30,467 nucleotides of DNA from a virus. This document shows, piece after piece, positions 1 through 30,390 of this stretch; position 1 is the first letter of the stretch; each line of letters opens with the position of its first letter. Below the pieces are notes generated by a model. The model was given only the letters and a program-made list of their open reading frames with translations, did no database searches and was not told the DNA's origin. The DNA lies in IMG/VR virus record IMGVR_UViG_3300050506_000125, one strand, 5' to 3'. Both the position numbers and the translations under genes were made by a program.

Positions 1-127
1 ATAATGGCACTAGCTACCGCTACATCCACCAACAAATCAAAGATACTCATTTGTAAAATGGTTCTCCTTTCTTTGGATTTGTCTTGGCTAGTTTTCTAAA
101 GAACTCTAAAGGTTCTCCATAGGTCAT
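1..127. repeat. Left copy of the 127-nt exact direct terminal repeat (circular assembly overlap)
   Basis: Read base by base against 30341-30467; identical. 127 is a common assembler k-mer size. Confidence 0.95.
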
Positions 128-297
128 AGATTGAATTAGATATAGAATTACATAAAGTTTTGTCTTGTTATGTTACATACTCGTTCTTATCTGTACCTGT
201 CTCTATTGTATAATATGGACAAATTGGATCACGTATTGTTTATAGCACTACTCCTAGCAATCATAATATAAAAAAGGTGTGGTGTGGTGGATGTAAT

Positions 298-579
298 TTA
301 AAGAAGTCTGACCACGAATAGTATTGCTACAGCTGCCACAACTATAAGAATTACTCCTAATAGCGTGTATGCTGATTGTGCGTTGGTGTTCTGGTTAAGA
401 CATTGTAGCGCCCATCCTGTGGCGTTAGAAGTTGTCTGGTGTGTACCTGCGTTACCCGGCAGGTTAGAACAGTTTGTCGCAGTTTGTACGTTACCTAAGA
501 TCTGGACACCTATGTTAAGCATGATCGCAATAGCGATAAATGCGCCCACAAGTCCCATGATTGTGCTGGATTCTGGCAT
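298..579 (-). CDS. Putative major capsid protein, SSV1 VP1-like two-helix hydrophobic protein (93 aa)
   Basis: Two long hydrophobic helices flank an N/T/Q-rich loop with NxS/T sequons (NCS, NAT). 'VQILGN' follows helix 1. TATA-like TTATATC lies about 30 nt upstream of the ATG. C-rich stretch plus T6 follows the stop. VP1 similarity is from memory only. Confidence 0.55.
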   Translation of the reverse strand: MPESSTIMGLVGAFIAIAIMLNIGVQILGNVQTATNCSNLPGNAGTHQTTSNATGWALQCLNQNTNAQSAYTLLGVILIVVAAVAILFVVRLL

Positions 580-659
580 CTTAAACTATATCAAAACAAT
601 TTTAGATATAAGCCGATGTCCGTCATATGACCAAAGCTTATAACCTAGTATTTCGTTTA

Positions 660-1040
660 TCACTGTTCATTTGTCTGTGATACTATTACATAATAAATTA
701 GTGTTGCAATTCCAAAGCTAGCCATTATCAAAGCGAAATTAAGAAATTGTGTAGGGAATACGAAGTATGAAATAGGAATGAATAACGTGCCTACAAATAA
801 AGTATATGTGAGCTTGTGATATTTTATGTACGTGAATAGAATAATTACAAATGCAATTACTAGAGAGAAATATCCACCTGTTACATATTGGAAGCCGATT
901 GTAATTGCAGCTAGATAATCTTTACCCATACCGCAATCTTGCCAAATGTTGTTTGATGTATAATTAAGAAAACAGGGATTTGTTTGATTGACTATAATGG
1001 TTTGTAAGAATACTAGCTGCATGTGTAAAAGTTCTAGCAT
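660..1040 (-). CDS. Integral membrane protein (126 aa, about 4 TM helices)
   Basis: Track ORF. Hydrophobic segments throughout. Same strand and tight spacing with neighbours. Confidence 0.55.
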   Translation of the reverse strand: MLELLHMQLVFLQTIIVNQTNPCFLNYTSNNIWQDCGMGKDYLAAITIGFQYVTGGYFSLVIAFVIILFTYIKYHKLTYTLFVGTLFIPISYFVFPTQFLNFALIMASFGIATLIYYVIVSQTNEQ

Positions 1041-1058
1041 TGTTTTTATACTACTCCA

Positions 1059-1223
1059 CTAGACTTTATCTTTTTGTCTTTTTGCTAGTTTTTTCTCTTT
1101 CCAATGATTAGTCTTAGCCTTCTTTTTGCGCTTGATGTTACGTACAGTCCAGTAGAAATAAAGAACTCCTAAGCCTACTACTATTCCTATATAAACTTCT
1201 TGTGCATCATTAAGACCAAACAT
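1059..1223 (-). CDS. Small membrane protein with basic tail (54 aa)
   Basis: Not in track (<60 aa). ATG overlaps the upstream stop as TAATG. One TM helix (VYIGIVVGLGVLYFYW), then a K/R-rich tail. Confidence 0.4.
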   Translation of the reverse strand: MFGLNDAQEVYIGIVVGLGVLYFYWTVRNIKRKKKAKTNHWKEKKLAKRQKDKV

Positions 1224-1513: not shown

Positions 1514-2512
1514 TTAATGATGTGTTGGTGTATAGTTCTTTACTAACTTTTGCACATTTGGTGATAGTTGGCATAGCTTGATATCTCCATCAGATACAGC
1601 TTTGTTTAGATCTTCTGGTAATGGATATTTACTGAATATGGTAGCATCGTCTATGTGTACACATGCATAATTAGTACCAGTTGTTCCACCCCCACCTGTT
1701 GCGCTTGGTGATGTGTTGAACTGTGGGAAGATAGAAGCAAATGGGTTAGCTCCTGATCCGTTAGATATTAGATAGACACCCATGAAAGCTACTGCACCAA
1801 TAATTAAGATTAATGCAGCTATAACAAGATAATTCTTTTTCGCATCTATCTTGGTGTTTAATACTTTCTTTTGTTCCTTGTCAAGTAACATACAAGATCT
1901 AACTACATCTCCTAAGAACTTTGGATCTGTTGCAATAAGATCATCTTCTATAAATTCTGTAATGTCTTTTACTGGTGTAATGATTTGATATACTGCCATG
2001 TTGTCAAAATATGTTTTTAAGTTTGTCATTTGTTGGTTATACTGTTCTGGTTTGTCTGCTACATCTTCAACTAAGTTTTTTAATAGATGTGTTTCAAAAC
2101 CTTTGAACTCTTGTATGGTTGTTGTACCGTCATTGTTTTGTACTATACCAGCACTAGCTTTCTTTTCTCTTTGAGATAGAATCTTGAAAGCTCCGAACAT
2201 TGTTGTATTCATTCTTGGTAATGAATTTAATCTTAGAACTTCTTCTAGTTCTTTATTGTATTCTGGTGAAATTGGTAGATAATGTTTTGTGGAATAATGT
2301 AATATACGAATTGATTTAGCAGCTGTTTCTTTGTATGTTCCTATTCTTGCATCATGTACCTTGAAGCAATAAAGATCCTTATCGATGAATGTCAACCAGT
2401 AATCACCTAACATATGTTTGATATGTCTGAAATGGATTCTTCCTGATGAATCTCTAATTTCAGCTGTAATGTATTTGTGGGTGAATAGATCCTTATGTGT
2501 TATAATACCCAT
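1514..2512 (-). CDS. Single-pass membrane protein, unknown function (332 aa)
   Basis: Track ORF. Soluble N-domain of about 225 aa, one TM helix (NYLVIAALILIIGAVAFMGVYLI), a G/T-rich linker and a small C-domain. Confidence 0.6.
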   Translation of the reverse strand: MGIITHKDLFTHKYITAEIRDSSGRIHFRHIKHMLGDYWLTFIDKDLYCFKVHDARIGTYKETAAKSIRILHYSTKHYLPISPEYNKELEEVLRLNSLPRMNTTMFGAFKILSQREKKASAGIVQNNDGTTTIQEFKGFETHLLKNLVEDVADKPEQYNQQMTNLKTYFDNMAVYQIITPVKDITEFIEDDLIATDPKFLGDVVRSCMLLDKEQKKVLNTKIDAKKNYLVIAALILIIGAVAFMGVYLISNGSGANPFASIFPQFNTSPSATGGGGTTGTNYACVHIDDATIFSKYPLPEDLNKAVSDGDIKLCQLSPNVQKLVKNYTPTHH

Positions 2513-2533: not shown

Positions 2534-2854
2534 TTATTTAAAAAGGTGTTGGTTGAATGTAGCACTAACTCTTTTCTTATAATCTTCTATAGTCTCAACA
2601 GGGATTAGAATAGTACATCCAGCAATACGTTTCTTAAAATCTTCCAATGATTCTTTTGGCATTGGTTCAAATGCTGTGTAATGGATCTTCATTTGTTTTT
2701 CTTTTTGAGCTTCCTTCCAAAGTCTTTTCCAATCTGAAAATGAAATACCCGGTGGAGCTTCCCTTCTATATTGTTCACCTAGAATACTATCTAACTGTCT
2801 GTTTTTTTGTTTGATTAATGTATTGTGTTCTTTCTTGGATAGAACTGTTTCCAC
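2534..2854 (-). CDS. Hypothetical charged protein (106 aa)
   Basis: Track ORF with a GTG start. Faces an AT-rich divergent promoter region (2855-2919) containing TATATAAT-type boxes. Confidence 0.5.
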   Translation of the reverse strand: METVLSKKEHNTLIKQKNRQLDSILGEQYRREAPPGISFSDWKRLWKEAQKEKQMKIHYTAFEPMPKESLEDFKKRIAGCTILIPVETIEDYKKRVSATFNQHLFK

Positions 2855-2919
2855 GTGTTCTATTTTATATGAGATATATAATAAAGGTTTATGTTCTAGT
2901 GTATTTCTACTATATAATA

Positions 2920-3396
2920 ATGCCTACCATGCAAGAATCGGAAAAATCTGTAGCTGATTTAGTAGATGTAGTTTTAGAATCTTGGAAAACAGAAAGACTA
3001 GTTGAAACAGAAGATGGTAAGACAAGAATAGAAAGAGTTATTGATTCTAGGCGTGGTTGGTGGCAAACTCATCATATAGCATCTAATCAATTTGGATCTT
3101 TGGCAAAATATCGAGAAGAGCTTGGTAATCTTTTCAAATCAGCAAGTTATCATATGACAGCTCATAGAGCAGCTCCTTTGGTGAAATTGGGAATGATGTT
3201 CTGTGAATCTGTTGATTATTCTATGGATGCGAAAAGTTCTGAAAGTGTAAAGGATGTAAATAATAACCATATGACTTTGTTAACATTGTTAGCTAAAGCA
3301 AAGACAGAAAGACAGTTCAATGTCAAACAAGAATTATCTAAAGGTATCTTAGACGGAATTATCGGCAAGAAAGCAGATCAACAAGCTAATTCTTAG
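2920..3396 (+). CDS. Hypothetical protein (158 aa from first ATG)
   Basis: Track ORF is 2818-3396. The first ATG (2920) sits directly after CTATATAATA, so I trimmed the start. No motif recognised. Confidence 0.5.
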   Translation: MPTMQESEKSVADLVDVVLESWKTERLVETEDGKTRIERVIDSRRGWWQTHHIASNQFGSLAKYREELGNLFKSASYHMTAHRAAPLVKLGMMFCESVDYSMDAKSSESVKDVNNNHMTLLTLLAKAKTERQFNVKQELSKGILDGIIGKKADQQANS

Positions 3397-3471
3397 AAAA
3401 TATAATTAATCTTCTAAATTTTAAATTATCAGAAGTAAAGTATTCAAATAAAATAATTTTGGTTGGTCTAA

Positions 3472-3588
3472 TCAATCTCTGTCAGGATATCTTTCTTTGT
3501 AAACTTTTTCTTCTATAGAATGTTCTGCGTTCTCAGTCCATTGATTAGAACCAATTTCATCTTTTAGTTTGTTTGCTCGTTTATGCAT
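3472..3588 (-). CDS. Mini-ORF (38 aa), in frame with 3595-3753 across a TAG
   Basis: Hand translation: MHKRANKLKDEIGSNQWTENAEHSIEEKVYKERYPDRD. It lies two codons after the in-frame TAG of the upstream mini-ORF. Confidence 0.25.
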   Translation of the reverse strand: MHKRANKLKDEIGSNQWTENAEHSIEEKVYKERYPDRD

Positions 3589-3594
3589 TTTGTT

Positions 3595-3753
3595 CTAGAA
3601 GCTTTCTTCGTTGTGATGTTTCTTTGTGTCTAATGCTCTTTTTTCAAATTCACCTAAGCCTTCGTGATGAAAGCCCTCAGTTTCATTGAGCTCATGTTCT
3701 GTGTGATGAGATGTTCCTATATGGTCTAGAACTTTTTTGCCGAATTCGTGCAT
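3595..3753 (-). CDS. His-rich mini-ORF (52 aa)
   Basis: Hand translation: MHEFGKKVLDHIGTSHHTEHELNETEGFHHEGLGEFEKRALDTKKHHNEESF. Not in track (<60 aa). Confidence 0.3.
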   Translation of the reverse strand: MHEFGKKVLDHIGTSHHTEHELNETEGFHHEGLGEFEKRALDTKKHHNEESF

Positions 3754-3928
3754 GTTTCAATTTTACATTCTGTATTATTTAAGGTTGTGTCTTTTCATTA
3801 AATTTCATCATAAAGAAGAAATAGCTCGGTTGGTTTAGTTCCTTTGCTCAGAAGGTTGACGTATCAACCAACCAGTGATAACTATAATTAATTCCTTAAA
3901 TTTAAACTTTTAAAAAAAAGATTTGATA

Positions 3929-4144
3929 CTAGAGCTTCGTAGTGTCAGGGCTTGGTGTCTGACCTTTTTTTCTCAATTCCTCTTCTGCTTTACGTCTGCC
4001 TTGCTCTTCTGCATCCGCTTTGAGTTTTTGAAGCTCTTTGTATCTTTTTGCAGCTTGTTTCTTTTTTGCGAAATAGCCAGCAATGAACAAGCCACCCATT
4101 GCTACACTAACTTGAAGCCAAGTTACCCAATCAGGCATCCACAT
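3929..4144 (-). CDS. Small membrane protein with charged coiled-coil tail (71 aa)
   Basis: Track ORF. N-terminal TM helix, then a K/E/A-rich helix. Preferred over the overlapping + strand ORF 3923-4156, which is low-complexity F/L/C-rich. Confidence 0.5.
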   Translation of the reverse strand: MWMPDWVTWLQVSVAMGGLFIAGYFAKKKQAAKRYKELQKLKADAEEQGRRKAEEELRKKGQTPSPDTTKL

Positions 4145-4178
4145 AACAACATATAGAGGATTGTACTAGTATATTAGG

Positions 4179-4376
4179 CTATGTCTGTATCTTGTTGTTA
4201 AACATGCTTTTGTGTACGTCTGCTAGGATTTTGTCTGTCTTTGCCTTGATTGTAAATCTTTTACCATGACCTTTTAATGCGCACTTTCTACACTGGATAT
4301 CCGTAGTCTTACGTGTTATAATTTCATGTCCGTCGGGGCAGATGATACGACGTCTCATTAAATTCTTGTTAACCAT
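4179..4376 (-). CDS. Zinc-ribbon mini-protein (65 aa)
   Basis: Track ORF. CPDGH...CRKC pair and basic composition. Confidence 0.5.
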   Translation of the reverse strand: MVNKNLMRRRIICPDGHEIITRKTTDIQCRKCALKGHGKRFTIKAKTDKILADVHKSMFNNKIQT

Positions 4377-4887
4377 TTAAGATCATTTGTCCATGTTGTA
4401 TAGGTTGTAATATGCCACATCTAGCTTTGAAAATATTAAAACATCTCAAAGAACAAAAATAAAACTTGTATTGTACCTTGTTACTTGGTTTTAGTGTTAT
4501 GACTGTATAAATCTTTTTGTATTGATCTATCTTGGATATGTTAGCCATACAAAGATAATTTTTACATTCTGAAACATTGATTGAAGATAATAGTTCTCTT
4601 AGATCAGCTATCTTTCTTAACATTAAACTTTCCTCATAAAATGTATCATTTGCTCTAGCTATTTGCTTTCTCTTTTGATTTTCTGATATTGTGTTTTTTA
4701 ATGCCATTTGGAAAGCTCTTACTCTTTGTGTGTGATCATCTGTAATCATTCCATAATGTAATTTGCATAAATCTATTCTTTCTATGATGCTTGGTGTTTC
4801 TGGATTCAAAAAGATAATTCCTTGTAAATTATATGTCTTGTTGCATCTGTTATCATTATCATCTATAAAGTTACAAGTTCCGATCAT
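4369..4887 (-). CDS. Cys-rich hypothetical protein (172 aa)
   Basis: Track ORF. Cys/His clusters at both ends (CNFIDDNDNRC..C..H; C..C..CSLRC). Overlaps the ATPase stop by 4 nt. Confidence 0.55.
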   Translation of the reverse strand: MIGTCNFIDDNDNRCNKTYNLQGIIFLNPETPSIIERIDLCKLHYGMITDDHTQRVRAFQMALKNTISENQKRKQIARANDTFYEESLMLRKIADLRELLSSINVSECKNYLCMANISKIDQYKKIYTVITLKPSNKVQYKFYFCSLRCFNIFKARCGILQPIQHGQMILNG

Positions 4888-6062
4888 TGTTGTATTACCT
4901 CTGGTTTTTCTCTTTCCTCATCTTCCCAAGGAATAACTTGTACTATGTTTTTATCTGAAAATGAATCTAGGTTTTTATTTTTATCTTTCTCTTGCTCTAT
5001 TAATTTATCTAGCTTGATTCTTTTAGGTGGTGGAGTAAGCTTTAATCCGTAAATTTGACCTAATGCTAATAAATCAAAATTTTGTTCTGTCATGGTTTTA
5101 GATATCTTGTTTACAGCTCTTGTAAGTTCTGGTCTATAGGTGTTTAATCCAAGTTCCTTCATTTTTATCTTAATTGCGTTCTTTGCTATGATTTCACCAT
5201 ATCTTGCATCCAGATCTTGTTTGAACTTGTCCAAGCTAAAATTCTCGTCTTTAGCTCCTTCTGCCATAGAACAGATCGCGCACCCTCTATCCATCCATTC
5301 ACGTTCAGGTGTTACAATAAATCTTAATGATCTTCCATCCCAAAATAAAACAGGGATAAATGGATCTCTGTATCTCATAGTAAAGTTTCGTCTGTTCTTT
5401 CCAATTAGAAAAGTAAATGTTCCTTGTGAATACATCTCTGTTTGTAGTTTTGCGAATTGTGATATAATAAATGGATTAGAGTTTTTTGTAATTGAATTAA
5501 TGTTATCTTCCTCTTCTGATCCAATAGCAGTAAATATCTTAAAATGAGATTGTCTCAAATATTTGTTTTCCGCCTTTGTGTAATGGTAGTTATCTATCTG
5601 TATGATTTTAACATCCTTCTTATCTTTGAAGTGACGTATCATTGATTCACCAGCTTTCAATTCGTTAATCTGTTGTGGTGTTCCTTCCTTCTCAATCCAT
5701 GATACATCATCAAATATGAAGATATAGTTAGCTGCTGGTAGTGCTTCTATTGTTTTCTTAAAACTAAGTAATTCATCTCTTGTAAATATCTTTACTACAT
5801 ATGTGATACCTAAAAGATCCAAGCACATCAAATGTAAGAAATGAGCAAGAAATTTAGCTAGTGTTGTTTTTCCTGTGTGCGGATCTCCTACTATACCTAT
5901 CTTAACATAGTCTAATCTTTTTGCATATTGAGCTATAGAATGTATAGCTGTCTTTGGTGTTTGATTGCGTATCATCTCTATGCCCTTCCATTTGGTAGTA
6001 ATGGGTTTGAAGAACTCTTCCTTCTGACCACCTATTGTAATAACTTTTTGCTCTATTGGCAT
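4884..6062 (-). CDS. P-loop NTPase (AAA-like), 392 aa; possible replication-initiation or genome-delivery ATPase
   Basis: Walker A is GIVGDPHTGKTT. Walker B is YIFIFDDVSW. AGAGGT SD lies 7 nt upstream of the ATG. Acidic/K-rich C-terminal tail. Confidence 0.8.
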   Translation of the reverse strand: MPIEQKVITIGGQKEEFFKPITTKWKGIEMIRNQTPKTAIHSIAQYAKRLDYVKIGIVGDPHTGKTTLAKFLAHFLHLMCLDLLGITYVVKIFTRDELLSFKKTIEALPAANYIFIFDDVSWIEKEGTPQQINELKAGESMIRHFKDKKDVKIIQIDNYHYTKAENKYLRQSHFKIFTAIGSEEEDNINSITKNSNPFIISQFAKLQTEMYSQGTFTFLIGKNRRNFTMRYRDPFIPVLFWDGRSLRFIVTPEREWMDRGCAICSMAEGAKDENFSLDKFKQDLDARYGEIIAKNAIKIKMKELGLNTYRPELTRAVNKISKTMTEQNFDLLALGQIYGLKLTPPPKRIKLDKLIEQEKDKNKNLDSFSDKNIVQVIPWEDEEREKPEVIQQ

Positions 6063-6154
6063 TGACCTCTAAACCTCTTATGACATGAACAAATACAATT
6101 TGGCATCCTACAAAATTCATGCTCACTTGTAGAACATTCGTAACTAAATACCAT
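6053..6154 (-). CDS. Mini zinc-finger protein, CxCxCH family (33 aa)
   Basis: Hand translation: MVFSYECSTSEHEFCRMPNCICSCHKRFRGQCQ. Overlaps the ATPase start by 10 nt. Shares the CxCxCH(K/G)(R/Y) core with ORFs at 11091-11201 and 11785-11928. Confidence 0.35.
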   Translation of the reverse strand: MVFSYECSTSEHEFCRMPNCICSCHKRFRGQCQ

Positions 6155-6156
6155 TT

Positions 6157-6846
6157 CTAATATTTGCTATCCAGTGTAGCTAGTATCTGTTCTTGAATTT
6201 GATCCATTCCTTGTTCATCACCCGGTCTATGATTATCCCATCTTAACTGTGATATCTGTCTTGTTAGTTCTGATACTGCCATGCCAAACCAAGCTTTGTA
6301 TTTAATATGATAAGTTGTACGGTCTGATAAGTTCTGTTTTCTAGAAGGTGGATATGGAACAATCTTTAGGAAGAATGGTTCTTCTAGAATTTGTTTCTCT
6401 ATCTTTGATTCTGATAAAATGTTAGTAGCTTTACATTCATGGCATGTCCATACCTTAGTATGTGTACTACCTGAACCTATCTGTTGTGCTAATGGTAATA
6501 ACATATTCCACATCTTGATATCATCCTTATTGAATTTAGTACCGCAAGGCTTACAGTATATTAGTGTAGGATGTTCTGTAGCAGCTCTATACTTGTCTGT
6601 ATTGAACTCTACTCTATAACCATCCTTGAGAGCTGCATTAACAGAATGTAATGAAGCTGTACATGCGTCATAGTCTTGATGATATAATGCAAAGTAAGCT
6701 CTATCAAGATGTTTCAATGCAAGGATGTTTAGATCAATTAATGCTGGTGTGACCATTTCAATCAATTCCTGTATAACGTTATATATTATAAGGTTGCCGA
6801 TGTAGGTAAGAGAATGTAGCTTTTCATGTATGTTATCTTGTAACAA
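6157..6846 (-). CDS. Hypothetical protein with internal zinc ribbon (229 aa)
   Basis: Track ORF with a TTG start. CKPCGTKF...WTCHECKATN is a CxxC-x31-CxxC ribbon. Confidence 0.55.
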   Translation of the reverse strand: MLQDNIHEKLHSLTYIGNLIIYNVIQELIEMVTPALIDLNILALKHLDRAYFALYHQDYDACTASLHSVNAALKDGYRVEFNTDKYRAATEHPTLIYCKPCGTKFNKDDIKMWNMLLPLAQQIGSGSTHTKVWTCHECKATNILSESKIEKQILEEPFFLKIVPYPPSRKQNLSDRTTYHIKYKAWFGMAVSELTRQISQLRWDNHRPGDEQGMDQIQEQILATLDSKY

Positions 6847-6932
6847 TAGTAGCTAAGGAATAGGCATAGAATAGCTTCTAATCAAACTAAAACCTAAAAC
6901 CTTAAGTAGAACATATCACAAGTTAAAATTAA

Positions 6933-7574
6933 ATGAAGCATGATGAGACTTGGCAGAATAAAGAGACATCTTCTTGGATTCCTTATACAAAGTTCATACA
7001 AATGTTGGATGTAATACCTAGCTTAAAGATACGAAAGTGGAAAGACTCTGATGTTATTATGATGTTCAAGATAACTTACTGGTTGGCTTTACGAATAAAT
7101 GAAACATTGAAACTTACTATGGATAGCTTTGATTTGGTATTAGGTATTTGTTATTTAGGTAAGACCAAAACAGAAGATAATGATCAAAGACTTGTGCCTA
7201 AAATCTTTATTCCAGAACTCAAAGAGTATTTGAAAGATAAGTCAGGTGCGTTATTTCCCGGTATGAATTATGCAATAGTCTATGATTGGTGTAAGAGGTT
7301 AGGCAAGAAATTAAATATCTTAGCTTTCAATACTCCTACTTCTGTTACTAAACAAAAAACTGTTACTCATGCTATGAGAAAGTCTAGAGGGAAGGATATG
7401 TACTATGGTACTTTATCAGGTATCAAAGCGGATATTGGTTCTGTATCTGCAAGGCTAGGACACAAAGGAAATAACAGATTTGCACAAACAATAGATTATC
7501 TAGATCTTGGTAAAGAAGGTACACGTAATTATGATGAAGCAGAAGCAGAAGCACTATCTAAAGAAGTTGATTAG
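6933..7574 (+). CDS. int: Tyrosine recombinase / integrase (213 aa, short archaeal-virus type)
   Basis: Motifs in order: box I Arg (LALRINETLKL), Lys-rich beta-hairpin (GKTKTEDNDQRLVPK), HAMRKSRG (HxxR), LGHKGN (His/Trp position), TIDYLD (catalytic Tyr). Confidence 0.8.
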   Translation: MKHDETWQNKETSSWIPYTKFIQMLDVIPSLKIRKWKDSDVIMMFKITYWLALRINETLKLTMDSFDLVLGICYLGKTKTEDNDQRLVPKIFIPELKEYLKDKSGALFPGMNYAIVYDWCKRLGKKLNILAFNTPTSVTKQKTVTHAMRKSRGKDMYYGTLSGIKADIGSVSARLGHKGNNRFAQTIDYLDLGKEGTRNYDEAEAEALSKEVD

Positions 7575-7894
7575 GTATGATAGTAATCAAACTTTGATCT
7601 ACGTTTCATTTTCCATTCCATCAAGTATCTTTCTATCTTGTACCATCCATGAAATTGTAAAGCCCAAATTCCAAATACAGACATGGGTATAGCTCCTAGA
7701 TCATACATAGTATATTTTCCATAAATAATATCAAATCCTGACAGGAACAAGCTTAACCCACACAGGAATAACCAAAGCCTTTTCATTGGTATCTTTGCGT
7801 TCTCAGTGTCTTTGAACTTGTAAGGCATTGGATAGTATTGTTTATAACCATATACTATAAAAGGTTGATTGTGACCTATCAAGAGAAAGCGCAC
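7571..7894 (-). CDS. Membrane protein (up to 107 aa; start uncertain)
   Basis: Track ORF with a GTG start. Two TM helices in the C-terminal 70 aa. An internal ATG at 7786 (MKRLWLF...) would remove the overlap with the + strand gene. Confidence 0.4.
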   Translation of the reverse strand: MRFLLIGHNQPFIVYGYKQYYPMPYKFKDTENAKIPMKRLWLFLCGLSLFLSGFDIIYGKYTMYDLGAIPMSVFGIWALQFHGWYKIERYLMEWKMKRRSKFDYYHT

Positions 7895-9978: not shown

Positions 9979-10035
9979 GGTATTCTATAATATCCACCAG
10001 CTAATAGATACTTGTATGTCATGGAATGATACAGA

Positions 10036-13288: not shown

Positions 13289-13301
13289 AATCTTTCCTTT
13301 C

Positions 13302-19217: not shown

Positions 19218-19225
19218 ACTTCTCT

Positions 19226-20710: not shown

Positions 20711-20729
20711 CATCCCGAGGTGCAAGTAA

Positions 20730-22475: not shown

Positions 22476-22705
22476 CTTTAGATAGAGAAAGATTTGAAAA
22501 AACAGGTGCGAGTGTAGGCACTTGGTTTTATCAATTAGATGTTACAGAAACAGAGATGAATGATATTCTAAGAAATCAAAAAATTGTATCTAAATTAAAT
22601 ACACTGGTTGATTCAATGGATGTAGAAGGCTCTATTCCTAATCATTGGGTTAAAGAAGTTTTAAGTAACCTTCTCAAAGACGGTTCGGTGAATTTGTCAA
22701 AATGA
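22472..22705 (+). CDS. Hypothetical protein (77 aa)
   Basis: Track ORF. AAGGAGAG SD upstream. Confidence 0.55.
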   Translation: MTLDRERFEKTGASVGTWFYQLDVTETEMNDILRNQKIVSKLNTLVDSMDVEGSIPNHWVKEVLSNLLKDGSVNLSK

Positions 22706-22866
22706 ATCTAAAATGTCTTTTTGGAACACATGATTATCGTATTCAATATTTAGACTATAATGAAAATGCAAAACGTACATATCAGATAATCTGCCAAAGA
22801 TGTGATAAAATCCTGAATATGACTAATATGACTTCATTAAAGGAATACACTAGGAGACAAAGGTAA
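22702..22866 (+). CDS. Mini-ORF with CxxC (54 aa)
   Basis: ATGA coupling. Sequence: MNLKCLFGTHDYRIQYLDYNENAKRTYQIICQRCDKILNMTNMTSLKEYTRRQR. Confidence 0.4.
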   Translation: MNLKCLFGTHDYRIQYLDYNENAKRTYQIICQRCDKILNMTNMTSLKEYTRRQR

Positions 22867-22872
22867 TTAGAA

Positions 22873-23010
22873 ATGCCTTGTATTCATTGTGGATGTAATC
22901 GAGAATGGCATGAGTATCAAAGAGATGGTGGTTCACATAGTGGAGATTGTACGAATCCAGATTGTAAAGCAGGTGAGCATTTTTATGATTCGGGGAGAAA
23001 AATTAGATGA
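22873..23010 (+). CDS. Cys/His mini-protein (45 aa)
   Basis: Sequence: MPCIHCGCNREWHEYQRDGGSHSGDCTNPDCKAGEHFYDSGRKIR. The stop overlaps the next ATG as ATGA. Confidence 0.4.
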   Translation: MPCIHCGCNREWHEYQRDGGSHSGDCTNPDCKAGEHFYDSGRKIR

Positions 23011-23216
23011 TCTTATACGGTGGAAGGAAATATGAAACGAATAAAAGTATACTAAAACGTTATCAGAAAAGTAAGTACGTTAAGATCCTAACTACATTTG
23101 AAAAAGGTTTCAATGATGAGAATTTCAGAGAGGGTGAATGTCAATTATGTGGTGGTATCTTTAAACTCGCTGGAATAGGTGGACATCTTCATTACAAACA
23201 TGGAGTAAAAAGGTAA
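23007..23216 (+). CDS. C2H2-like zinc-finger protein (69 aa)
   Basis: Track ORF. CQLC-x11-H-x-H-x2-H. Confidence 0.55.
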   Translation: MILYGGRKYETNKSILKRYQKSKYVKILTTFEKGFNDENFREGECQLCGGIFKLAGIGGHLHYKHGVKR

Positions 23217-23441
23217 TTGAGAGAATTTGCTACTGCTTGTTATACATGTACTAATGTAAAAACTGGTGCTGTTCCTATAGTCTTTACCACAATGAAAAAG
23301 AATGAGACCAAAATCAAGATACAAGGAGATTTTTATGATAAGCATATAGCCAAAAATCATCAAGTAAAAACAGTAGAGATTTCTTCAATCACTCAAGCAA
23401 AGAAAAAACCTAAAGTCTCGATTACTAAAGAGAGGGCGTGA
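23217..23441 (+). CDS. Hypothetical basic protein (74 aa)
   Basis: Track ORF with a TTG start directly after the upstream TAA. CYTC...H....H. Confidence 0.45.
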   Translation: MREFATACYTCTNVKTGAVPIVFTTMKKNETKIKIQGDFYDKHIAKNHQVKTVEISSITQAKKKPKVSITKERA

Positions 23442-23682: not shown

Positions 23683-23997
23683 CTAACAATTAAGCAAATG
23701 TAATATTTGTGTTATTATACTAGGTGTTATCCCTGCATTGTTTAGAATCGACCTTTCACTAAAACAAACTACTATTGGTGCAGAGCAATGATGATATTTA
23801 TCTATATTACAAACTACTGGTGGTGGAGATGTTACACCGTGTGGTACTACTTTTTTGTGGCAAAAAGTTAAACCACCAAAATAACTACATGGATTCCACC
23901 CAACACGACCTCCTGCATAGGCTTGTTGGGATGTTGCACTAAAGAAAACTATGCTTGAAATAGAGGCTATAATTAAAACAGCTACCAATTTATTCAT
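23683..23997 (-). CDS. Secreted Cys-rich protein (104 aa)
   Basis: Track ORF. Signal peptide MNKLVAVLIIASISSIVFFSATSQQAYA. 8 Cys in the mature part. Last gene of the structural operon. Confidence 0.6.
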   Translation of the reverse strand: MNKLVAVLIIASISSIVFFSATSQQAYAGGRVGWNPCSYFGGLTFCHKKVVPHGVTSPPPVVCNIDKYHHCSAPIVVCFSERSILNNAGITPSIITQILHLLNC

Positions 23998-24055
23998 GTT
24001 ATTTTAAGGTATCATATCTTAATAAGCATTATCATGTTATTTTTAGAAATTACAA

Positions 24056-27000
24056 CTATCCTTTATTCTTTAATAGAATTTCAGGCACGCTTGAAGTGCT
24101 TAGTGTGGCATTTGTATAAAATGGACTAGGTAAAGCAGTTGGTGAACTTGTACCCATTGTATGTGAAGTTGTGTACATTGTATTACCGTTTGTTGCGCCC
24201 ATTGTATTTATCATTCCTAGATATGGAGCTAATGAAGAAGCTGGTATTGCTCTAAATACTGGTAGAGATGACACAGCGGGCGGATTTAATTCAATTAAAA
24301 CATCTGCGGTATTTTGTCTATTGGCAGCTGGTAAAGCCCAATTCCAAGTCATTTTATTAGCTGAATTTATTATTGGATTTGTTTTATATTGTGAAGCACC
24401 AGCTACTTGATTAGCGCCTGTTATACTATTCCAAGCCTGTGTATTTGATGGAGCTTGTGGTATTGCTTCATTAAGTCCGCCCGCTGTATCTATACCAAAT
24501 ATGTTTTCAATCAACCATGCATTAGTATGTGTTGGCGTTCCAGAAATTGAACTTGTTCTGGTTGTTGTACCATTACTAGATGTAATACCTATTGGTGTTG
24601 TTTGATGTACATTGTATAACGAATAACCACCAGTTATCATATAATATGATGCTGTAGTTACTGGTGTTATAGTTACGGTTTGTAATCCTGTTGGTGGATT
24701 TACTAGATACCATATCTCACTATCCAAAGCAAAGTTAGCTGTGGCATTATTTCTAGTAAAGTTTACAGCTTTAGTAAAAGATGTACCGCCTATTGCTACA
24801 CTAGATATAACAGCATTGTTAGTATTTGGTGTACTAGCTCCTTTTCCATAAGATATAGGAACAACCAATATACGATTTGTATTACTTCCTATTGTTATTG
24901 TAAATGTTTGTGTCGCACTTGTTGAAGCTCCGGCTGTTGTAGATGATGTAATAACATCGGTTGTTATTGTATTTACTACGGTTCCAGCATTACAATCTAA
25001 TGCGTTAAAATATCTTCCTTCCGGTAAATGTATATCACTTGTAAAGTTATTTATTATTGTTCTAGTAGTCCGTGTCTGTGTTGTTAATGCACCAACATCT
25101 GAACCAGAAATTTTATTGTATGGATATCCATTATAATCAGAATATAATGCCATTCTACAATTAGAAGCCGATCCAGCTGTTGTTACTTCCGATTGTATGG
25201 TACTTAGAGAAGTGGTACGATCTAATTTGAACGGAATGGCGTAAAGTGTATTATTTGTTACAGCTAATGTAGTTGGTGTACCTTGATTATTCCATGAACC
25301 ATAATAACTATTAACTGTATTTTTTAATGAATTGATTGCTATACTAGATTGTATAGGAGTTTTCTTAAACCATGTTGTACCGTTGTTATCAATTAATAAA
25401 GTATCCATAGGATTTGTCATGTTTAAATTGGTAAAGTAATCTATGGTTGAGCTTGTTGGAACTATCTCAATATAATTATTAGAATAATCAATCTTCTTTA
25501 TCATTAGTTCTTTTCCCGTACTCATTGTTGCTATAGTAGGAATAGTAATAGTATAGTTACCTCCTGTTGCATTTACTAATATAATATCATCTGTAGATGC
25601 AACAGTATAAGAATTAGTTTTACTTACTGCATTAAGTAACATTTTATTACATGTAGAATCTGAACTGTTTGATATTGCTGATATAAATTGATTGTTTGTA
25701 CAAGCCTTTGTATTAATTTTAAACTGGAAGCTAGGTGTAATTGATGTTGTATTATGATTCCATAATACATAAGCTGTTGAATTACGTAATGATTTTAATT
25801 TTGTTTCTGTTGCATTAAATTGTGAACTAATTAAACTTACTCCATTGTCTGCGCTTACTACTTGAGCTGTATTAGTGGGTGTTGCACATGTATAAATTCC
25901 AGTTGAATTTGTAAATGCAGAAATGAATTGATTCGTACATGCAATAGTATTAGATTTGAAACTAGAAGCTAGATTAACATTATTAGAAGATTGAGTTATT
26001 GTAAATAGATCAGATCTTGAAGTAGTTAAGTTTCTTAGATTAATATTATTATTTGTACTGTTCTTGAAGAAACCAAAACCAGAAGTACCGATATTAGATC
26101 CACCAGTGATTGTTCCAGTTGTACTAGAACATGTTGGACATGATATAGCTATATCTGTATCATTTGTTTTTGTAACTACAATAGGACTAGTACCTGTCAT
26201 GTTTCTGCCTTTGATTAACGTAGTTGTAGGTGTTGATAATACACCAACTGAACCAGTAGCTTTACCAGCGTTTGCACTTCCTGTTATAGTTCCTGTTGTA
26301 GTTGAACAAGTAGGGCAAGAAACATTTACTTGACCAGTTGATGCGTTAACTACAACTGGTGATGTTGCAGCTAATTTTGTCACACCCGTATTAGTTACTA
26401 AAATATTTCCTGATGTTTGATTTACCGATATTCCAGTACCAGCAATTAATTTTGTTACAATACTTGGAATATTAAATATAACATTGGTGGAGTTTGTTGT
26501 TATACTTAGAAAGGAATTTGATGATATTAGTTTTAAGAATTGCAATATTGATCCACTCATTGAAGCAAAGACACCAGAACCACTTGTACCTAAATTAGAA
26601 CCCGTATTGTTTTGCCAACCAGCTGCGTTTATGGTTATAGTATTACCAGCTGCGGTTATGGAATTGATGTTTGTTCCTTTGGCTATTGTTAAAGCACCTG
26701 TCAAACTATTTAATGATGTTACACCAGAACCAGATCCAGTTTGATTTAACAATGCACAAGCTAGAATATTTGTCGTTGCGTTATAAGAAACAAATCCAAA
26801 GTTAGCAGGACAATAAGTAGTTGGTAATCCTGATGATGGATTAGGAGCTGTTAGATATATTGTTTGAGAACTGTTAGAACCTGTTACACCTAAACCATTC
26901 TTTCCTACTATATTAACAGAAGCAATAAAGTTCTTTGCTGAAATGGTAGCATTGCTTACATTAAATTGATTGTACGCATTTGTTGGTGGTATGTTAACGG

Positions 27001-27094
27001 TTGGTGGTTGAATTGCGAATTGTGCGTTAGCTGATGAAATGTAGATAGATGATATAAAAACTATTAGGATTAGAAGGTAAGTTCTTCTTATCAT
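24056..27094 (-). CDS. Large secreted S/T/N-rich adhesin-like / terminal-fibre candidate (1012 aa)
   Basis: Track ORF. Signal peptide MIRRTYLLILIVFISSIYISSANA. Internal repeats (..SCPTCS[TS]TTGTITG.. twice; ..ACTN(N)QFISA.. twice). Very many NxS/T sequons. No C-terminal TM helix. Confidence 0.8.
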   Translation of the reverse strand: MIRRTYLLILIVFISSIYISSANAQFAIQPPTVNIPPTNAYNQFNVSNATISAKNFIASVNIVGKNGLGVTGSNSSQTIYLTAPNPSSGLPTTYCPANFGFVSYNATTNILACALLNQTGSGSGVTSLNSLTGALTIAKGTNINSITAAGNTITINAAGWQNNTGSNLGTSGSGVFASMSGSILQFLKLISSNSFLSITTNSTNVIFNIPSIVTKLIAGTGISVNQTSGNILVTNTGVTKLAATSPVVVNASTGQVNVSCPTCSTTTGTITGSANAGKATGSVGVLSTPTTTLIKGRNMTGTSPIVVTKTNDTDIAISCPTCSSTTGTITGGSNIGTSGFGFFKNSTNNNINLRNLTTSRSDLFTITQSSNNVNLASSFKSNTIACTNQFISAFTNSTGIYTCATPTNTAQVVSADNGVSLISSQFNATETKLKSLRNSTAYVLWNHNTTSITPSFQFKINTKACTNNQFISAISNSSDSTCNKMLLNAVSKTNSYTVASTDDIILVNATGGNYTITIPTIATMSTGKELMIKKIDYSNNYIEIVPTSSTIDYFTNLNMTNPMDTLLIDNNGTTWFKKTPIQSSIAINSLKNTVNSYYGSWNNQGTPTTLAVTNNTLYAIPFKLDRTTSLSTIQSEVTTAGSASNCRMALYSDYNGYPYNKISGSDVGALTTQTRTTRTIINNFTSDIHLPEGRYFNALDCNAGTVVNTITTDVITSSTTAGASTSATQTFTITIGSNTNRILVVPISYGKGASTPNTNNAVISSVAIGGTSFTKAVNFTRNNATANFALDSEIWYLVNPPTGLQTVTITPVTTASYYMITGGYSLYNVHQTTPIGITSSNGTTTRTSSISGTPTHTNAWLIENIFGIDTAGGLNEAIPQAPSNTQAWNSITGANQVAGASQYKTNPIINSANKMTWNWALPAANRQNTADVLIELNPPAVSSLPVFRAIPASSLAPYLGMINTMGATNGNTMYTTSHTMGTSSPTALPSPFYTNATLSTSSVPEILLKNKG

Positions 27095-27501
27095 TCGACT
27101 TCATTATCTTCCCTTACGCCCTGAGCTGGTGCTTTTGTTAACAGGTTCAAGATTTGTTTTATCATATAGAATATTAGAGTAATAGCTAACAACCAATGGA
27201 ACATTGACCATACTGGATTTTGAAGTATGATAGTATTTGATTGTGTCGTAGCTTCTGTCCATGTTTGTGTAGTGTTTATGGATTTGATTAAGTTGTTTGT
27301 TGTTACTGTATTTACATCTATGTTTATTCCAGAGCTTGCAAGAATCATTAATGCTATGATACCGGGAAATAAATAAATTACTCTAACTAAAGATAAGACT
27401 CTACTATCTGGAATTTCTTTAACAGCTGAAACAATTAGAACAGCGAAAGAAGAATATCCAATTAAAGCGTACACAATATATTCAAGAATAGAAATTTCCA
27501 T
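27091..27501 (-). CDS. Membrane protein (136 aa, about 3 TM)
   Basis: Track ORF. 4-nt overlap with the adhesin gene. Confidence 0.6.
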   Translation of the reverse strand: MEISILEYIVYALIGYSSFAVLIVSAVKEIPDSRVLSLVRVIYLFPGIIALMILASSGINIDVNTVTTNNLIKSINTTQTWTEATTQSNTIILQNPVWSMFHWLLAITLIFYMIKQILNLLTKAPAQGVREDNEVE

Positions 27502-27504
27502 AAA

Positions 27505-27921
27505 CTAAATGCCACGCACCAATCCCATTATGGAACGACCTAAAAAGAAAGTGTATAATGCCATGAATCCCATTATGAAAATTATTGGTACTTGCATATC
27601 ATTCATTATACCAAATATGTAAAATCCAGATATTAATAAAATCATATCCCAAGCTATTATAGCAGCTGATCCTAAATATGTCGCAGGGTTTTGTATCTGA
27701 CTAATCCAAGAAGAAGTCTGGTTAGTAAATGCTTGTTGTTCTTGGTTTAGTGTTGCTGTCTGTATATTAGAAAATATATCTGTCTTAATTGGTACACCAG
27801 AGAAATTAGTTAGTTGAATGTGCATCACATCACCAAAGATAAATTGTCCACCTAACATTGAAATATTTACACAGTACACGAAAATTACTGCTAATAAACT
27901 TTTCTCAATTACAAAGACCAA
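27505..27921 (-). CDS. Membrane protein (138 aa, about 4 TM)
   Basis: Track ORF. TTG start behind AGGGTGAT. Confidence 0.6.
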   Translation of the reverse strand: MVFVIEKSLLAVIFVYCVNISMLGGQFIFGDVMHIQLTNFSGVPIKTDIFSNIQTATLNQEQQAFTNQTSSWISQIQNPATYLGSAAIIAWDMILLISGFYIFGIMNDMQVPIIFIMGFMALYTFFLGRSIMGLVRGI

Positions 27922-27935
27922 GCTAATTTATCACC

Positions 27936-29344
27936 CTAACCAAAATCCTGTGATTTGCGTGTCGAGAGATATATGAGCATTGTTATCACGATCAAAGCTC
28001 CTATGATTGCTGTATTTATTGTTATGATTTGTATCAGTCCTTCTATGCCTAATATTGCTAGTGCAAAGAAAGCACCCACTGATTCATTCTTTCTATTGAA
28101 TCCTATCATGGCTATTATTATTCCCACTAGTGAAATTAAATCAAATACTCCAAATTGTCCATGTGTTCCAAATGTTCCGTTTCTAAAACCTGATACCTGA
28201 GTTTGTAAAGGAAAACCAGTTTGAGTTAAAATGTATTTGCCTGTTGAAGATGATATAGTATCAAGACAAGATACAGTTATTATTTCATTGTTTACTTTAT
28301 GGAATATGAAGCTAGAGTTTACATGATTTGGATCTGGTGTATAAGGAACATTAGGTAATGGAGCTCCATAGGTTTTGTTTGTGAAGGCATATGTATAAGC
28401 TAGGTTACATTGCAGATTCATTGTATTAGGATATATCACTGACAATCTTTTATCACTTGCGTTTATCTGTGTTGTTATGAAATAGATAGGAAGCACGTTT
28501 GTATTGGTTTGATTAAAGTTTAACGAACCCGGTCTAAATGAATTAAATATTAAATTAAACGGTGTAGATGTTATTACACTTACTTGCGTTGGTGTTGATA
28601 CAATAGCTTCTTCTGTATAGGTAATAGTTCCAACTGGATTTGATATGTCACGTAAAGTAATTGGAATAGTAAGTTGTGTACCAGCTACCAAAGGGAAAGG
28701 TGGATTAAATATTATAGAGTCTTGTAAACCATTTTGATTAAATAAAAGTAATGCAGTAAGATTAGAATTAACAGGACTGGATAAAGTTATGTTTGAATTA
28801 GAAAATACACCAGCTCCACTTAGAATAATTCCTTTTATTGTAAAGCTAGATGATGTAATAGAACCAGCTACCCATGATATGAATATGGTATGATGTGTAC
28901 CCGGACTGATTTGAGTCATGGTATTACCACCAGTATATGACCATGTAGATCCATATGGTTGTATAACTCCATCTAGCTTAACCTGTTGGATTAATCCTAG
29001 AATAGTAAATGTTGGATTAACTGGATTGTTTGTTATTTTGAATGTAGCGTTTACACCTTCATGGAAAGATGTAATGTTAGCGTTTACTGTATTTCCAATC
29101 CATACAATATCATATGATGGTGAACCAAGAAATATATGATTAGTGTTTGTTGTTATGGAACTAACAGTAAAGAATGGATGTACATCAGCTGTATAATTTG
29201 AATAAGGATGAGGTGCGCTGTTTTGTATTTGAGTACCGGGATAAACATCTACTGCATAAGCATCATGGATATAAAATATGGATAGTACAGAAATTCCTAA
29301 CAGGACGAGTAAATAGAACTCGTTTTTTTTTTATTCCGTTCCAT
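27936..29344 (-). CDS. Structural glycoprotein with signal peptide and 2-3 C-terminal TM helices; about 469 aa only if an A10 run is read with a -1 shift (or is really A11)
   Basis: The track ORF (327 aa) starts at ATG 28919, but the same frame is open for 137 more codons up to 29330. That stretch encodes KKNEFYLLVLLGISVLSIFYIHDAYA|VD, a signal peptide with no start codon. The only ATG (29344-29342, TAATG with the upstream stop) reads MERNKKK into the A10 run (T10 at 29323-29332), then TSSIYSSC* in the other frame. Confidence 0.6.
29323..29332 (-). other. A10 (T10 on + strand) homopolymer at the frame junction of the glycoprotein gene
   Basis: Counted as cg-tttttttttt-att on the + strand. 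It contains the A_AAA_AAC-type slippery pattern in the ATG frame. Confidence 0.9.
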
Positions 29345-29955
29345 TATGATCCCTGATAGATTATTAGTCTGTCAATTATTCCAGTAGTATCTAAACCAAA
29401 TATTCCTATATATTTTCCATCACTTGATATAGATACACCTTCATTGGATAAGTTTGTACCATCATTAAACTGTGATGTGTTAATGAATAGAGTTTGTAAT
29501 ACCGCATCATTCTTTGATACTGTTATTTTCTTTGTAGAATCATTGTAAGCTATTTTATATTTCCCCCCGAATGATTGATCATTTTGTGGAGTATTCTCGA
29601 CTACTGCACCAGAATTAGAAAATGAATTAATTACTTGTTGTGTACTGTTTATCATATAACCCTGTACAAAAGTATCTGAAACTAAGACTGATTTGTCATT
29701 ACCAATTTGAAACTTATTTATAAAATGAATATTAGTTGTTGCTATTGTATTATTAAAAACTAAAGCATAAGAATTAAAACTACCAGCACCACCACAACCT
29801 GAACAAGTTCCTGTTACTGTAAGATTAGTTGTTGTAATTCCAGTATCAGTTATTATGGTACTAGCTGCATAAGCTGAACTGGAAATAGCACCAGCAAGAA
29901 TAATTAATATGATTGAGGTTTTAGGATGTGATGATATAAAAGAAAGTCTTTTCAT
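29344..29955 (-). CDS. Secreted protein (203 aa)
   Basis: Track ORF. Signal peptide MKRLSFISSHPKTSIILIILAGAISSSAYA. T/N/S-rich with several sequons and a CSGC pair. Confidence 0.65.
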   Translation of the reverse strand: MKRLSFISSHPKTSIILIILAGAISSSAYAASTIITDTGITTTNLTVTGTCSGCGGAGSFNSYALVFNNTIATTNIHFINKFQIGNDKSVLVSDTFVQGYMINSTQQVINSFSNSGAVVENTPQNDQSFGGKYKIAYNDSTKKITVSKNDAVLQTLFINTSQFNDGTNLSNEGVSISSDGKYIGIFGLDTTGIIDRLIIYQGS

Positions 29956-29995
29956 GGTATCATTTCTCTATAACAATAATTAATAAAGTTTATGC

Positions 29996-30265
29996 CTAGT
30001 CACTTCCTTTAACCGAAGCTGCCATAAGCACTTTCAAGACTAGTAGAAAAACTCCAATACTAGGAATTAACGGTACTAGAAATTTAGTAGTGTTTTCATT
30101 TTGTGTATAAATTGCTTGCCAACTAGATGACATGGTACTGGTAAGATTGTATGAATCAAGTACAGTAAAGAAGTGTCCTAGTATTTGCGGAACAAGTAGA
30201 AATACAATTCCGTATGTTATTATGAATACGATTGTAGAAAGTCCAAGAAATACAAGACTACTCAA
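29996..30265 (-). CDS. Second VP1/VP3-like two-helix hydrophobic protein (89 aa); minor capsid candidate
   Basis: Track ORF. TTG start behind GGGGTGA. It has the same architecture as the 298-579 product. It carries 'PQILGH' after helix 1 (versus 'VQILGN'), sequons in the loop (NLT, NTT), and 'FLVPLIPSIGVFLLVL' in helix 2. Confidence 0.5.
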   Translation of the reverse strand: MSSLVFLGLSTIVFIITYGIVFLLVPQILGHFFTVLDSYNLTSTMSSSWQAIYTQNENTTKFLVPLIPSIGVFLLVLKVLMAASVKGSD

Positions 30266-30390
30266 TCTTTCACCCCTAAGGCTTCATACTTGGAATTATC
30301 TGATTCTTTAGTATCATCTGATAGCTTCTTTGTAGTTTTTATAATGGCACTAGCTACCGCTACATCCACCAACAAATCAAAGATACTCAT
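30262..30390 (-). CDS. Mini-ORF (42 aa)
   Basis: Sequence: MSIFDLLVDVAVASAIIKTTKKLSDDTKESDNSKYEALGVKD. ATGA overlap upstream and TTGA overlap downstream. Part of it lies in the terminal repeat (same as 1-50). Confidence 0.35.
   Translation of the reverse strand: MSIFDLLVDVAVASAIIKTTKKLSDDTKESDNSKYEALGVKD

Follow-up and report, generated by a model that had tools for sequence, protein, structure and literature searches.

Two described groups of viruses are relevant to the DNA considered here. The Nitrosopumilus spindle-shaped viruses (NSVs; family Thaspiviridae) have a linear genome and a protein-primed DNA polymerase B (PolB) (PMC10866085). In 2024, Ni et al. proposed that NYMAG-47 (= NYM1), together with ten relatives from IMG/VR, represents hypothetical spindle-shaped viruses whose hosts are ammonia-oxidizing archaea (AOA) (PMC10866085). 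The 2025 ratification by the ICTV, the international body for virus taxonomy, includes these as the family Nipumfusiviridae, with NTT1 (BK067791) as the exemplar of Terrafusivirus tennesseense, and treats Nipumfusiviridae and Thaspiviridae as distantly related (PMC12451623). Members of the Nipumfusiviridae are mesophilic, have a global distribution and are putatively spindle-shaped, with ammonia oxidizers as presumed hosts; they are not known to encode a replicase.

The window analyzed here is a stretch of 30,467 nucleotides (nt), IMG/VR record IMGVR_UViG_3300050506_000125. It contains a 30,340-bp genome that is, almost beyond doubt on sequence evidence, that of the Nitrosopumilaceae spindle-shaped virus NTT1 (Terrafusivirus tennesseense, Nipumfusiviridae). 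The present finding is a rediscovery of a genome that has been in print since 2024 and in the ICTV classification since 2025. What is added is a contig that carries a host junction at a tRNA-Arg gene, a second hairpin gene that is unannotated in the type genome, and a fold link between the family ATPase and an NSV protein, extending tentatively to the B251 protein of Sulfolobus spindle-shaped virus 1 (SSV1).

Genome form and identity

The window consists of 30,340 bp plus a 127-bp overlap, bases 1-127 being an exact repeat of bases 30341-30467. Independent contigs from other samples (ENA ERZ27257998, JGI 3300006914, Logan SRR5585387) are 99.99-100% identical to it, and in both contigs that reach the ends (ENA and JGI) the 127 bp occur only once across the end junction. 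Terminal identity and junction-spanning contigs together establish positions 1-30340 as one complete circular or circularly permuted genome, with a GC content of ~33%.

Several lines of evidence identify this genome. In Table S2 of the published study the record bears the name NTT1, with a length of 30,340 bp, a GC of 0.329 and Populus rhizosphere (Tennessee) as its source (PMC10866085); the genome in the window has the same length and GC, and the first ~200 nt of the window are identical to the supplementary FASTA record of the same name (PMC10866085). A search of 5.8 billion proteins finds the window's ATPase to be 100% identical to the UniRef entry "ORF13, Nitrosopumilaceae spindle-shaped virus" (taxid 3065433). 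By exact look-up, four further proteins match entries of that virus: ORF1 (the 93-amino-acid (aa) protein), ORF15 (integrase), ORF60 (1012 aa) and ORF62 (89 aa). Apart from the 127-bp overlap in the window, no difference from NTT1 was detected. The NCBI taxonomy entry for this taxid still stands under "unclassified archaeal viruses".

No match came from a megablast search of 50,697 phage records with 25 kb of the window, and tblastn against that collection recovered only relatives with 32-37% identity; both outcomes are explained by the absence of BK067791 from the collection. An IMG/VR single-protein scan and an exact 40-mer scan also gave no match. The initial annotation, made from the letters alone, had described an unclassified virus outside the described families and had named near-identity to a classified virus as grounds for abandoning that view. 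Such near-identity is what was found, and the claim is refuted.

Core genes and membership in Nipumfusiviridae

All open reading frames (ORFs) were compared with NTM1, NYM1, seven IMG/VR loci and further contigs. Seven genes are present in every relative whose DNA covers the region: those for the putative major capsid protein (MCP), the second hairpin protein, the 126-aa, 332-aa and ~158-aa core proteins, the zinc-ribbon-like protein and the ATPase (Table 1). The published core list has six members, the Zn protein, three unknowns, MCP and ATPase (PMC10866085), against the seven found here. The longest ORF for the ~158-aa protein starts at position 2818, but the relatives' alignment begins at residue 35.

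Tblastn with the ATPase matches all nine of the other deposited Nipumfusiviridae, at 32-37% identity and E-values from 1e-46 to 4e-56. Mean identity over shared proteins is 50.8% with NTM1 (19 proteins) and 36.5% with NYM1 (12 proteins), as measured by one-way best hits rather than by the ICTV authors' exact method, and lies above the ICTV threshold of at least 30%. The MCP homolog, the ATPase homolog, the Zn protein and the three conserved proteins that mark the family are all present.

Within the family, Terrafusivirus michiganense NTM1 (BK067788) shares with NTT1, beyond the core, an HNH nuclease, a 654-aa protein and the module of glycoproteins. Its ATPase is only 36% identical. About two thirds of the NTT1 ORFs are unshared with NTM1 and other Nipumfusiviridae (NYM1, NBD1, NBC1, NMx). 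Most members have the short recombinase and the secreted Cys protein, as does NTT1, while NYM1 lacks the recombinase. One relative, IMGVR_UViG_3300024517_000020 (Ga0255049_10000052), is 61,587 bp long in the collection used here, and NMJ1, from the same contig, is listed as 33,957 bp (PMC10866085); the longer version probably represents a concatemer, assembled with a terminal repeat of great length.

Pfam was searched with all 70 ORFs and PHROGs with ten (eight that are shared with relatives, the HNH-like ORF and the 162-aa ORF). Neither search yields a polymerase, Rep, MCM, primase, terminase or HK97/jelly-roll capsid protein, which bears out the initial annotation in finding no replicase, terminase or classical capsid.

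The ATPase and its zinc-ribbon-like partner

The single P-loop ATPase noted from the letters is verified and is the hallmark protein of the family. Its Walker A (G59-x4-GK65) and Walker B (D118-D119) motifs are invariant, as is a cysteine pair, C261-x2-C264, and the protein also has a beta domain in its C-terminal part and a helical tail. Structural comparison, and more tentatively profile comparison, points to spindle-shaped viruses. An AlphaFold2 (AF2) model of the protein (predicted local distance difference test score, pLDDT, 81) was compared with a viral fold library, where the best match is an uncharacterized NSV protein (E 1.4e-9, TM-scores 0.42/0.52). In hhalign, the ATPase aligns with SSV1 B251 with a probability of 83% (E 9e-6) over 84 N-terminal columns that include W-x-G, Walker A and Walker B. 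These similarities lie at the level of folds and profiles: tblastn of the ATPase against the phage records gives no SSV match and no NSV record at E <0.01, and its profile matches only P-loop proteins among PDB sequences. As judged from the model and the alignment, the likeness to NSV and B251 proteins appears to support both the distant link to Thaspiviridae drawn by the ICTV and an ATPase common to spindle-shaped viruses.

The zinc-ribbon-like gene lies immediately upstream of the ATPase gene. A gene-caller start at 6756 would shorten its product to 199 aa. In several relatives (for example, ERZ23495240 scaffold_501 and IMGVR_UViG_3300024517_000020) the last base of the Zn gene is the start base of the ATPase gene.

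Hairpin proteins, membrane module and virion shape

The putative MCP has two conserved cysteines and two N-x-S/T sequons in its loop. It is 63% identical to ORF10 of NYM1 (89 aa), assigned as MCP by Ni et al. (PMC10866085), and 73% identical to the NTM1 homolog, and a homolog occurs in every relative with DNA covering the region. The MCP family comprises 105 cluster representatives at the 50% clustering level among 1.84 billion metagenome proteins, and the group is therefore fairly widespread.

The second hairpin protein likewise has two hydrophobic helices and two loop sequons, and its gene lies beside the MCP gene in 8/8 relatives with DNA covering the region. In NYM1 (BK067792) the homolog, with 43% identity, is encoded at 10851-11117 on the minus strand between ORF9 and ORF10, where no coding sequence is annotated. 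An AF2 model of the protein is a helical hairpin (pLDDT 83.5). The product is a candidate for a second capsid or virion membrane protein. The two hairpin proteins have no detectable similarity to each other. That the genome encodes two ~90-aa hydrophobic two-helix proteins was read correctly from the letters, but profile comparison with SSV1 VP1 and VP3 gives no support to their assignment to the VP1 type.

Besides the 1012-aa adhesin candidate, the membrane/glycoprotein module encodes two secreted proteins, one of 203 aa and a Cys-rich one of 104 aa. It also encodes a 327-aa protein whose C-terminal part has three transmembrane helices, and two proteins of 138 and 136 aa with three transmembrane helices each. 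None of these has a Pfam or PHROG match. Transmembrane helices, the signal-like segment and the 29 sequons verify the glycoprotein/membrane operon with a 1012-aa protein that had been proposed.

On present evidence a spindle is the favored morphology for NTT1, by a modest measure; for a lemon-shaped particle made of the hairpin MCP, that evidence consists of structure comparison in silico. The same published virus might instead have a virion that is not spindle-shaped, either a pleolipovirus-like membrane vesicle or a rod. A rod was weighed by Ni et al., who call the morphology hypothetical (PMC10866085), and the structural assignment involves small two-transmembrane proteins with no detectable VP1/VP3 homology, of which the modeled one resembles generic hairpins only. 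Furthermore, a membrane-protein-rich genome with a sequon-rich secreted protein recalls the small membrane proteins, glycosylated spike and nucleoside triphosphatase (NTPase) of pleolipoviruses. The ATPase, however, has its closest fold match in a protein of spindle-shaped NSV and aligns with SSV1 B251, and the adjacent pair of hairpin genes mirrors the arrangement of VP1 and VP3 in SSV1. A vesicle or rod is accordingly considered unlikely, though it deserves to be taken seriously, and the spindle is retained as the preferred shape.

A relative within Nitrosopumilus chromosomal DNA

Ni et al. reported neither a tRNA match nor a spacer match for these viruses (PMC10866085). A 45.3-kb ENA contig (ERZ23495240 LUOR22-1 scaffold_501) carries a relative whose ATPase, P0018, is 37% identical to that of NTT1. 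The left part of this contig encodes a peroxiredoxin and an aquaporin, the latter 91% identical to that of Nitrosopumilus ureiphilus, and is syntenic with the N. ureiphilus chromosome (CP026995) up to the last base of a tRNA-Arg(GCG) gene. The element starts directly after this tRNA (scaffold_501 locus 5952-6100, record ~33147-33295; compare N. ureiphilus locus 12047-12123). Beyond the tRNA lie eight conserved genes, among them those for the recombinase, the Zn protein, the ATPase, the 332-aa-like and three-transmembrane-like proteins and both hairpin proteins. A second assembly contains a contig that is identical to scaffold_501 and starts at tRNA nucleotide 15, as would be expected of an assembly-graph branch at an attachment (att) core of ~62 nt.

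As a single case, scaffold_501 links the Nipumfusiviridae physically to a host and provides evidence that the family is able to integrate. The literature found that names the family makes no mention of integration, and the contig would be the first physical host link found for these viruses. An ammonia-oxidizing archaeon is a highly probable host for NTT1.

Several further features of this locus are of note. A 265-aa ORF after the tRNA (scaffold_501 locus 6071-6868) was considered as an integrase fragment and rejected, as it has no Pfam match and no continuation in another frame; it also has no homolog in the other family genomes compared. The MCP gene of the integrated relative (scaffold_501 locus 14817-15089, minus strand) is inverted with respect to the flanking plus-strand core genes, whereas in NTT1 and the other relatives it has the orientation of its neighbors. 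Compared with N. ureiphilus (locus 10708-10760), scaffold_501 carries an additional ~1.9 kb (locus 2770-4675), inserted between the gene for the aquaporin and those upstream of tRNA-Arg, with contents that include a helix-turn-helix (HTH) protein and a 209-aa ORF. In N. ureiphilus itself (CP026995 ~754.5-757.3 kb, locus 12707-15513), the DNA downstream of tRNA-Arg holds small ORFs and an AbiEi/AbiEii toxin-antitoxin pair. This content of the N. ureiphilus locus suggests that tRNA-Arg is a general hot spot for integration.

The host link also bears on whether a phage or plasmid of bacteria has been mistaken for an archaeal virus. A contig bearing the ATPase is binned in a Flavobacteriales metagenome-assembled genome (MAG) (NYTT01000055.1), and both methyltransferase families of NTT1 are common in phages. 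This reading is effectively refuted: the 50,697 phage records hold no megablast match, tblastn of the ATPase matches nine Nitrosopumilaceae virus records only, the ten ORFs compared with PHROGs have no structural matches, and one relative has its place inside a fragment of a Nitrosopumilus chromosome. The "Flavobacteriales bacterium" contig NYTT01000055.1 is 7.8 kb long, carries the family recombinase, Zn protein and ATPase, and is probably mis-binned.

Recombinase, att sites and lifestyle

The recombinase of NTT1 has R54, K79, H146, R149, H177 and Y189, which are kept in 11 relatives. Conservation of all six catalytic residues makes an active recombinase plausible and, with the PF00589 match, verifies the short tyrosine integrase of the initial annotation. 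This enzyme is not of the type found in SSV1, with an hhalign probability of 2% against the SSV1 integrase.

No tRNA or att site was found in the genome. ARAGORN and Rfam detect nothing (see below), no tRNA-like sequence lies in or near the recombinase gene, and the tRNA-Arg of the integrated relative has no match in the 30,340-bp genome. The fragment of tRNA-Arg in the integrated relative is also absent from 90 other loci. The contigs of the closer soil relatives (ATPases P0004 and P0013) are purely viral.

The largest non-coding region contains two direct repeats that follow an ACACAC tract and each include a palindrome, TCGAGTAGA..TCTACTCGA, with 0 such repeats expected by chance. They were not found in relatives and could be an origin, an operator or other regulatory site, or an att site. 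Elsewhere, a 73-nt stretch on the plus strand (22377-22445) folds as a cloverleaf with a 9-bp closing stem and three hairpins (minimum free energy -31.2 kcal/mol, z -3.9). It includes a T-arm-like GGGGTTCGAAACCCC with a T-loop-like UUCGAAA, a pattern matched only by SSV1 attP among 94 loci, while ARAGORN and the Rfam tRNA model give no match to the stretch. The stretch may be coding: an ORF of possibly 46 aa (22335-22475), coupled through ATGA to the gene that follows, overlaps it. The cloverleaf probably arose by chance, but it could be a remnant of a tRNA-derived att site.

A temperate lifestyle for NTT1 is plausible, with the considerations on the two sides in near balance. A broader proposal is that nipumfusiviruses are temperate and integrate at the 3' ends of tRNA genes in Nitrosopumilus-type hosts, with the short recombinase as integrase and the second hairpin as a VP3-like capsid protein. 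In this full form the proposal is tentative and somewhat doubtful.

An element that can reside in a host chromosome might also be a non-viral mobile element of AOA, such as an integrative plasmid or cryptic element, in which the hairpins are ordinary membrane proteins. The lack of a hallmark capsid, terminase or portal would fit, as would the recombinase, methyltransferases and HNH nuclease that the genome encodes. Yet the assembly of the type member, NYM1, came from a "metavirome" (PMC10866085), a seven-gene module with both hairpins is kept across soil, estuarine and marine members, Pfam finds no conjugation or plasmid-replication genes, and the ATPase resembles those of spindle-shaped viruses. 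A non-viral element is therefore very improbable, and a virus remains the preferred interpretation.

Proposed workings

The following scheme is put forward for NTT1. The virion would be formed from the small hydrophobic alpha-helical MCP, probably with the second hairpin and membrane proteins, and the sequon-rich secreted 1012-aa protein and its neighbors may mediate attachment to the host. As no polymerase or Rep is encoded, the host replisome must be used for replication; it would presumably be recruited by the B251-like/NSV-like ATPase with its coupled zinc-ribbon partner. The catalytic-domain-only tyrosine recombinase may provide integration, dimer resolution or both. The two adenine methyltransferases are predicted to modify the genome, possibly against host restriction, and the winged helix-turn-helix (wHTH) and zinc-finger-like small proteins may regulate the divergent operons. 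The host would be an ammonia-oxidizing archaeon of the Nitrosopumilaceae type. Overall, an NTT1 genome with a virion of small hairpin proteins, use of the host replisome, a recombinase, methyltransferases and a host of this type is very probable as a combined description.

A number of observations weigh against parts of this scheme. Identity with NTT1 rests on the first ~200 nt, length, GC content and five proteins. No virion has been observed for any member of the family, and the morphology is deduced. A Foldseek search of PDB with the second-hairpin model returns only ESAT-6-like or designed hairpins at E >3, profile searches of PDB sequences with both hairpin alignments give no match, and hhalign of the two alignments against SSV1 VP1 and VP3 gives probabilities of 4% and 0.7%. 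In PDB the ATPase model matches the packaging NTPase B204 of STIV2 and AAA+ ATPases of a generic kind, with low TM-scores, and the protein may act either in replication or in packaging. As to integration, ARAGORN and Rfam find no tRNA gene or fragment within the 30,340-bp genome. Of 74 metagenome loci with the short recombinase that were fetched, 60 were scanned for tRNAs and none was found. The ATPase profile detects only two short MAG contigs, with no host context, in the 185,579 species genomes of GTDB, so that integration looks rare. Finally, the integrated relative is marine and its ATPase only 37% identical, and the host of soil-derived NTT1 is assigned across that distance.

Other genes and signals

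The features of the genome are collected in Table 1.

Table 1. Features of the NTT1 genome in the window, with position, strand and basis of assignment
Feature	Position	Strand	Basis or remark
Terminal overlap	1-127, again 30341-30467		Assembly signature of a circular 30,340-bp genome
Putative MCP, 93-aa two-helix hydrophobic hairpin	298-579	-	Homology to NYM1 ORF10
Core 126-aa protein, three predicted transmembrane helices	660-1040	-	All covered relatives; no Pfam/PHROG match
Core 332-aa protein, one transmembrane helix near residue 224	1514-2512	-	All covered relatives, 23-50% identity; no Pfam/PHROG match
Core soluble protein, ~158 aa	2920-3396	+	All covered relatives; no Pfam/PHROG match
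Family hallmark P-loop (ASCE/AAA+-like) ATPase, 392 aa	4884-6062	-	Walker motifs, UniRef identity
Core zinc-ribbon-like protein, two CxxC pairs	6157-6846	-	Immediately upstream of ATPase; kept in all relatives
Short tyrosine recombinase, 213 aa, catalytic domain only	6933-7574	+	PF00589, E 2.5e-4, below gathering score
Secreted cysteine-containing protein	7871-8647	+	Most relatives; no Pfam/PHROG match
Winged-helix transcription regulator	8649-8888	-	Pfam HTH_45, E 8.9e-17
Two 41-nt direct repeats, 88% identical	10306-10346, 10408-10448		Largest non-coding region, 9979-10441
HNH-endonuclease-like protein	10442-10954	-	PHROG HNH families, E 2e-4 to 3e-3; NTM1 homolog 40% identical
Dam-type N6-adenine DNA methyltransferase	11319-11846	-	PF05869, E 7e-14, above gathering score
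D12-class N6-adenine DNA methyltransferase	12073-12816	-	PF02086, E 9e-7, above gathering score
654-aa low-complexity Q/K/T/P-rich protein, no cysteines	15582-17546	-	Translation; no Pfam match
~20 small, tightly coupled ORFs, rightward block	19157-23441	+	ORF list
C2H2-pattern proteins	19874-20056, 23007-23216	+	Pattern; one weak zf-C2H2 match
SLOG/DprA-like protein	21394-21834	+	Sub-threshold YAcAr and DNA_processg_A matches
Membrane/glycoprotein module	23683-29955	-	Transmembrane and sequon counts; homologs in NTM1 and NYM1
1012-aa secreted adhesin candidate	24056-27094	-	N-terminal hydrophobic signal-like segment; 29 sequons
Second helical-hairpin membrane protein, 89 aa	29996-30265	-	Adjoins MCP gene across the junction

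The domain searches add little to these assignments. Pfam lists weak AAA/P-loop matches for the ATPase, a sub-threshold Phage_integrase match, the two methyltransferases, HTH_45 and sub-threshold SLOG/DprA-like matches, and no others, and PHROGs gives only weak HNH matches and a Sak4-like P-loop match. The gene for the 654-aa protein has internal 66-nt tandem repeats and a strong AT-skew anomaly of -0.41 at 16-17 kb, and only the C-terminal ~150 aa of its product are kept in NTM1.

The smaller regulators fit the initial annotation unevenly. The HTH_45 match bears out its wHTH regulator, and Pfam detects no ribbon-helix-helix regulator of the kind it listed. Its dozens of CxxC mini-proteins reduce to 18 ORFs with at least one CxxC. 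Only two ORFs fit the C2H2 finger pattern, one of them with a weak zf-C2H2 match in Pfam (E 0.0096). Similarly, the suggestion of TATA boxes with leaderless starts holds qualitatively, in that most operon-leading genes have an A/T-rich box such as CTTAAATA ~24-36 nt upstream of their ATG, but a motif count reveals no genome-wide enrichment.

Comparison with Thaspiviridae and Fuselloviridae

The description of a spindle-virus-like archaeal virus with an AT-rich host and an integrase, and with no PolB, Rep or terminase, agrees with both the published interpretation and the tests made here. The narrower label "fusellovirus-like" holds only for the architecture of the genome, given the negative VP1/VP3 profiles and an integrase unlike that of SSV in hhalign. 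NTT1 differs from Thaspiviridae in its circular or permuted genome and in having no PolB domain in any ORF by Pfam. It shares with NSV1-3 a host group that is the same as far as can be deduced, and the best viral fold match of its ATPase model is an NSV protein.

SSV1 differs from NTT1 in several respects. The hairpins of NTT1 lack profile similarity to VP1 and VP3, the recombinase is not SSV-type by hhalign and no attP was detected in its gene, the NTT1 genome is twice as large, and its presumed host is mesophilic. On the other hand, both viruses have circular double-stranded DNA, adjacent genes for small hydrophobic hairpin proteins (putatively structural in NTT1), and an ATPase gene beside that for a tyrosine recombinase, the NTT1 ATPase being tentatively B251-like from 84 N-terminal columns. 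The likeness extends to a large gene of the end-filament/adhesin type, many small Zn-finger and wHTH proteins, and a genome that encodes no polymerase.

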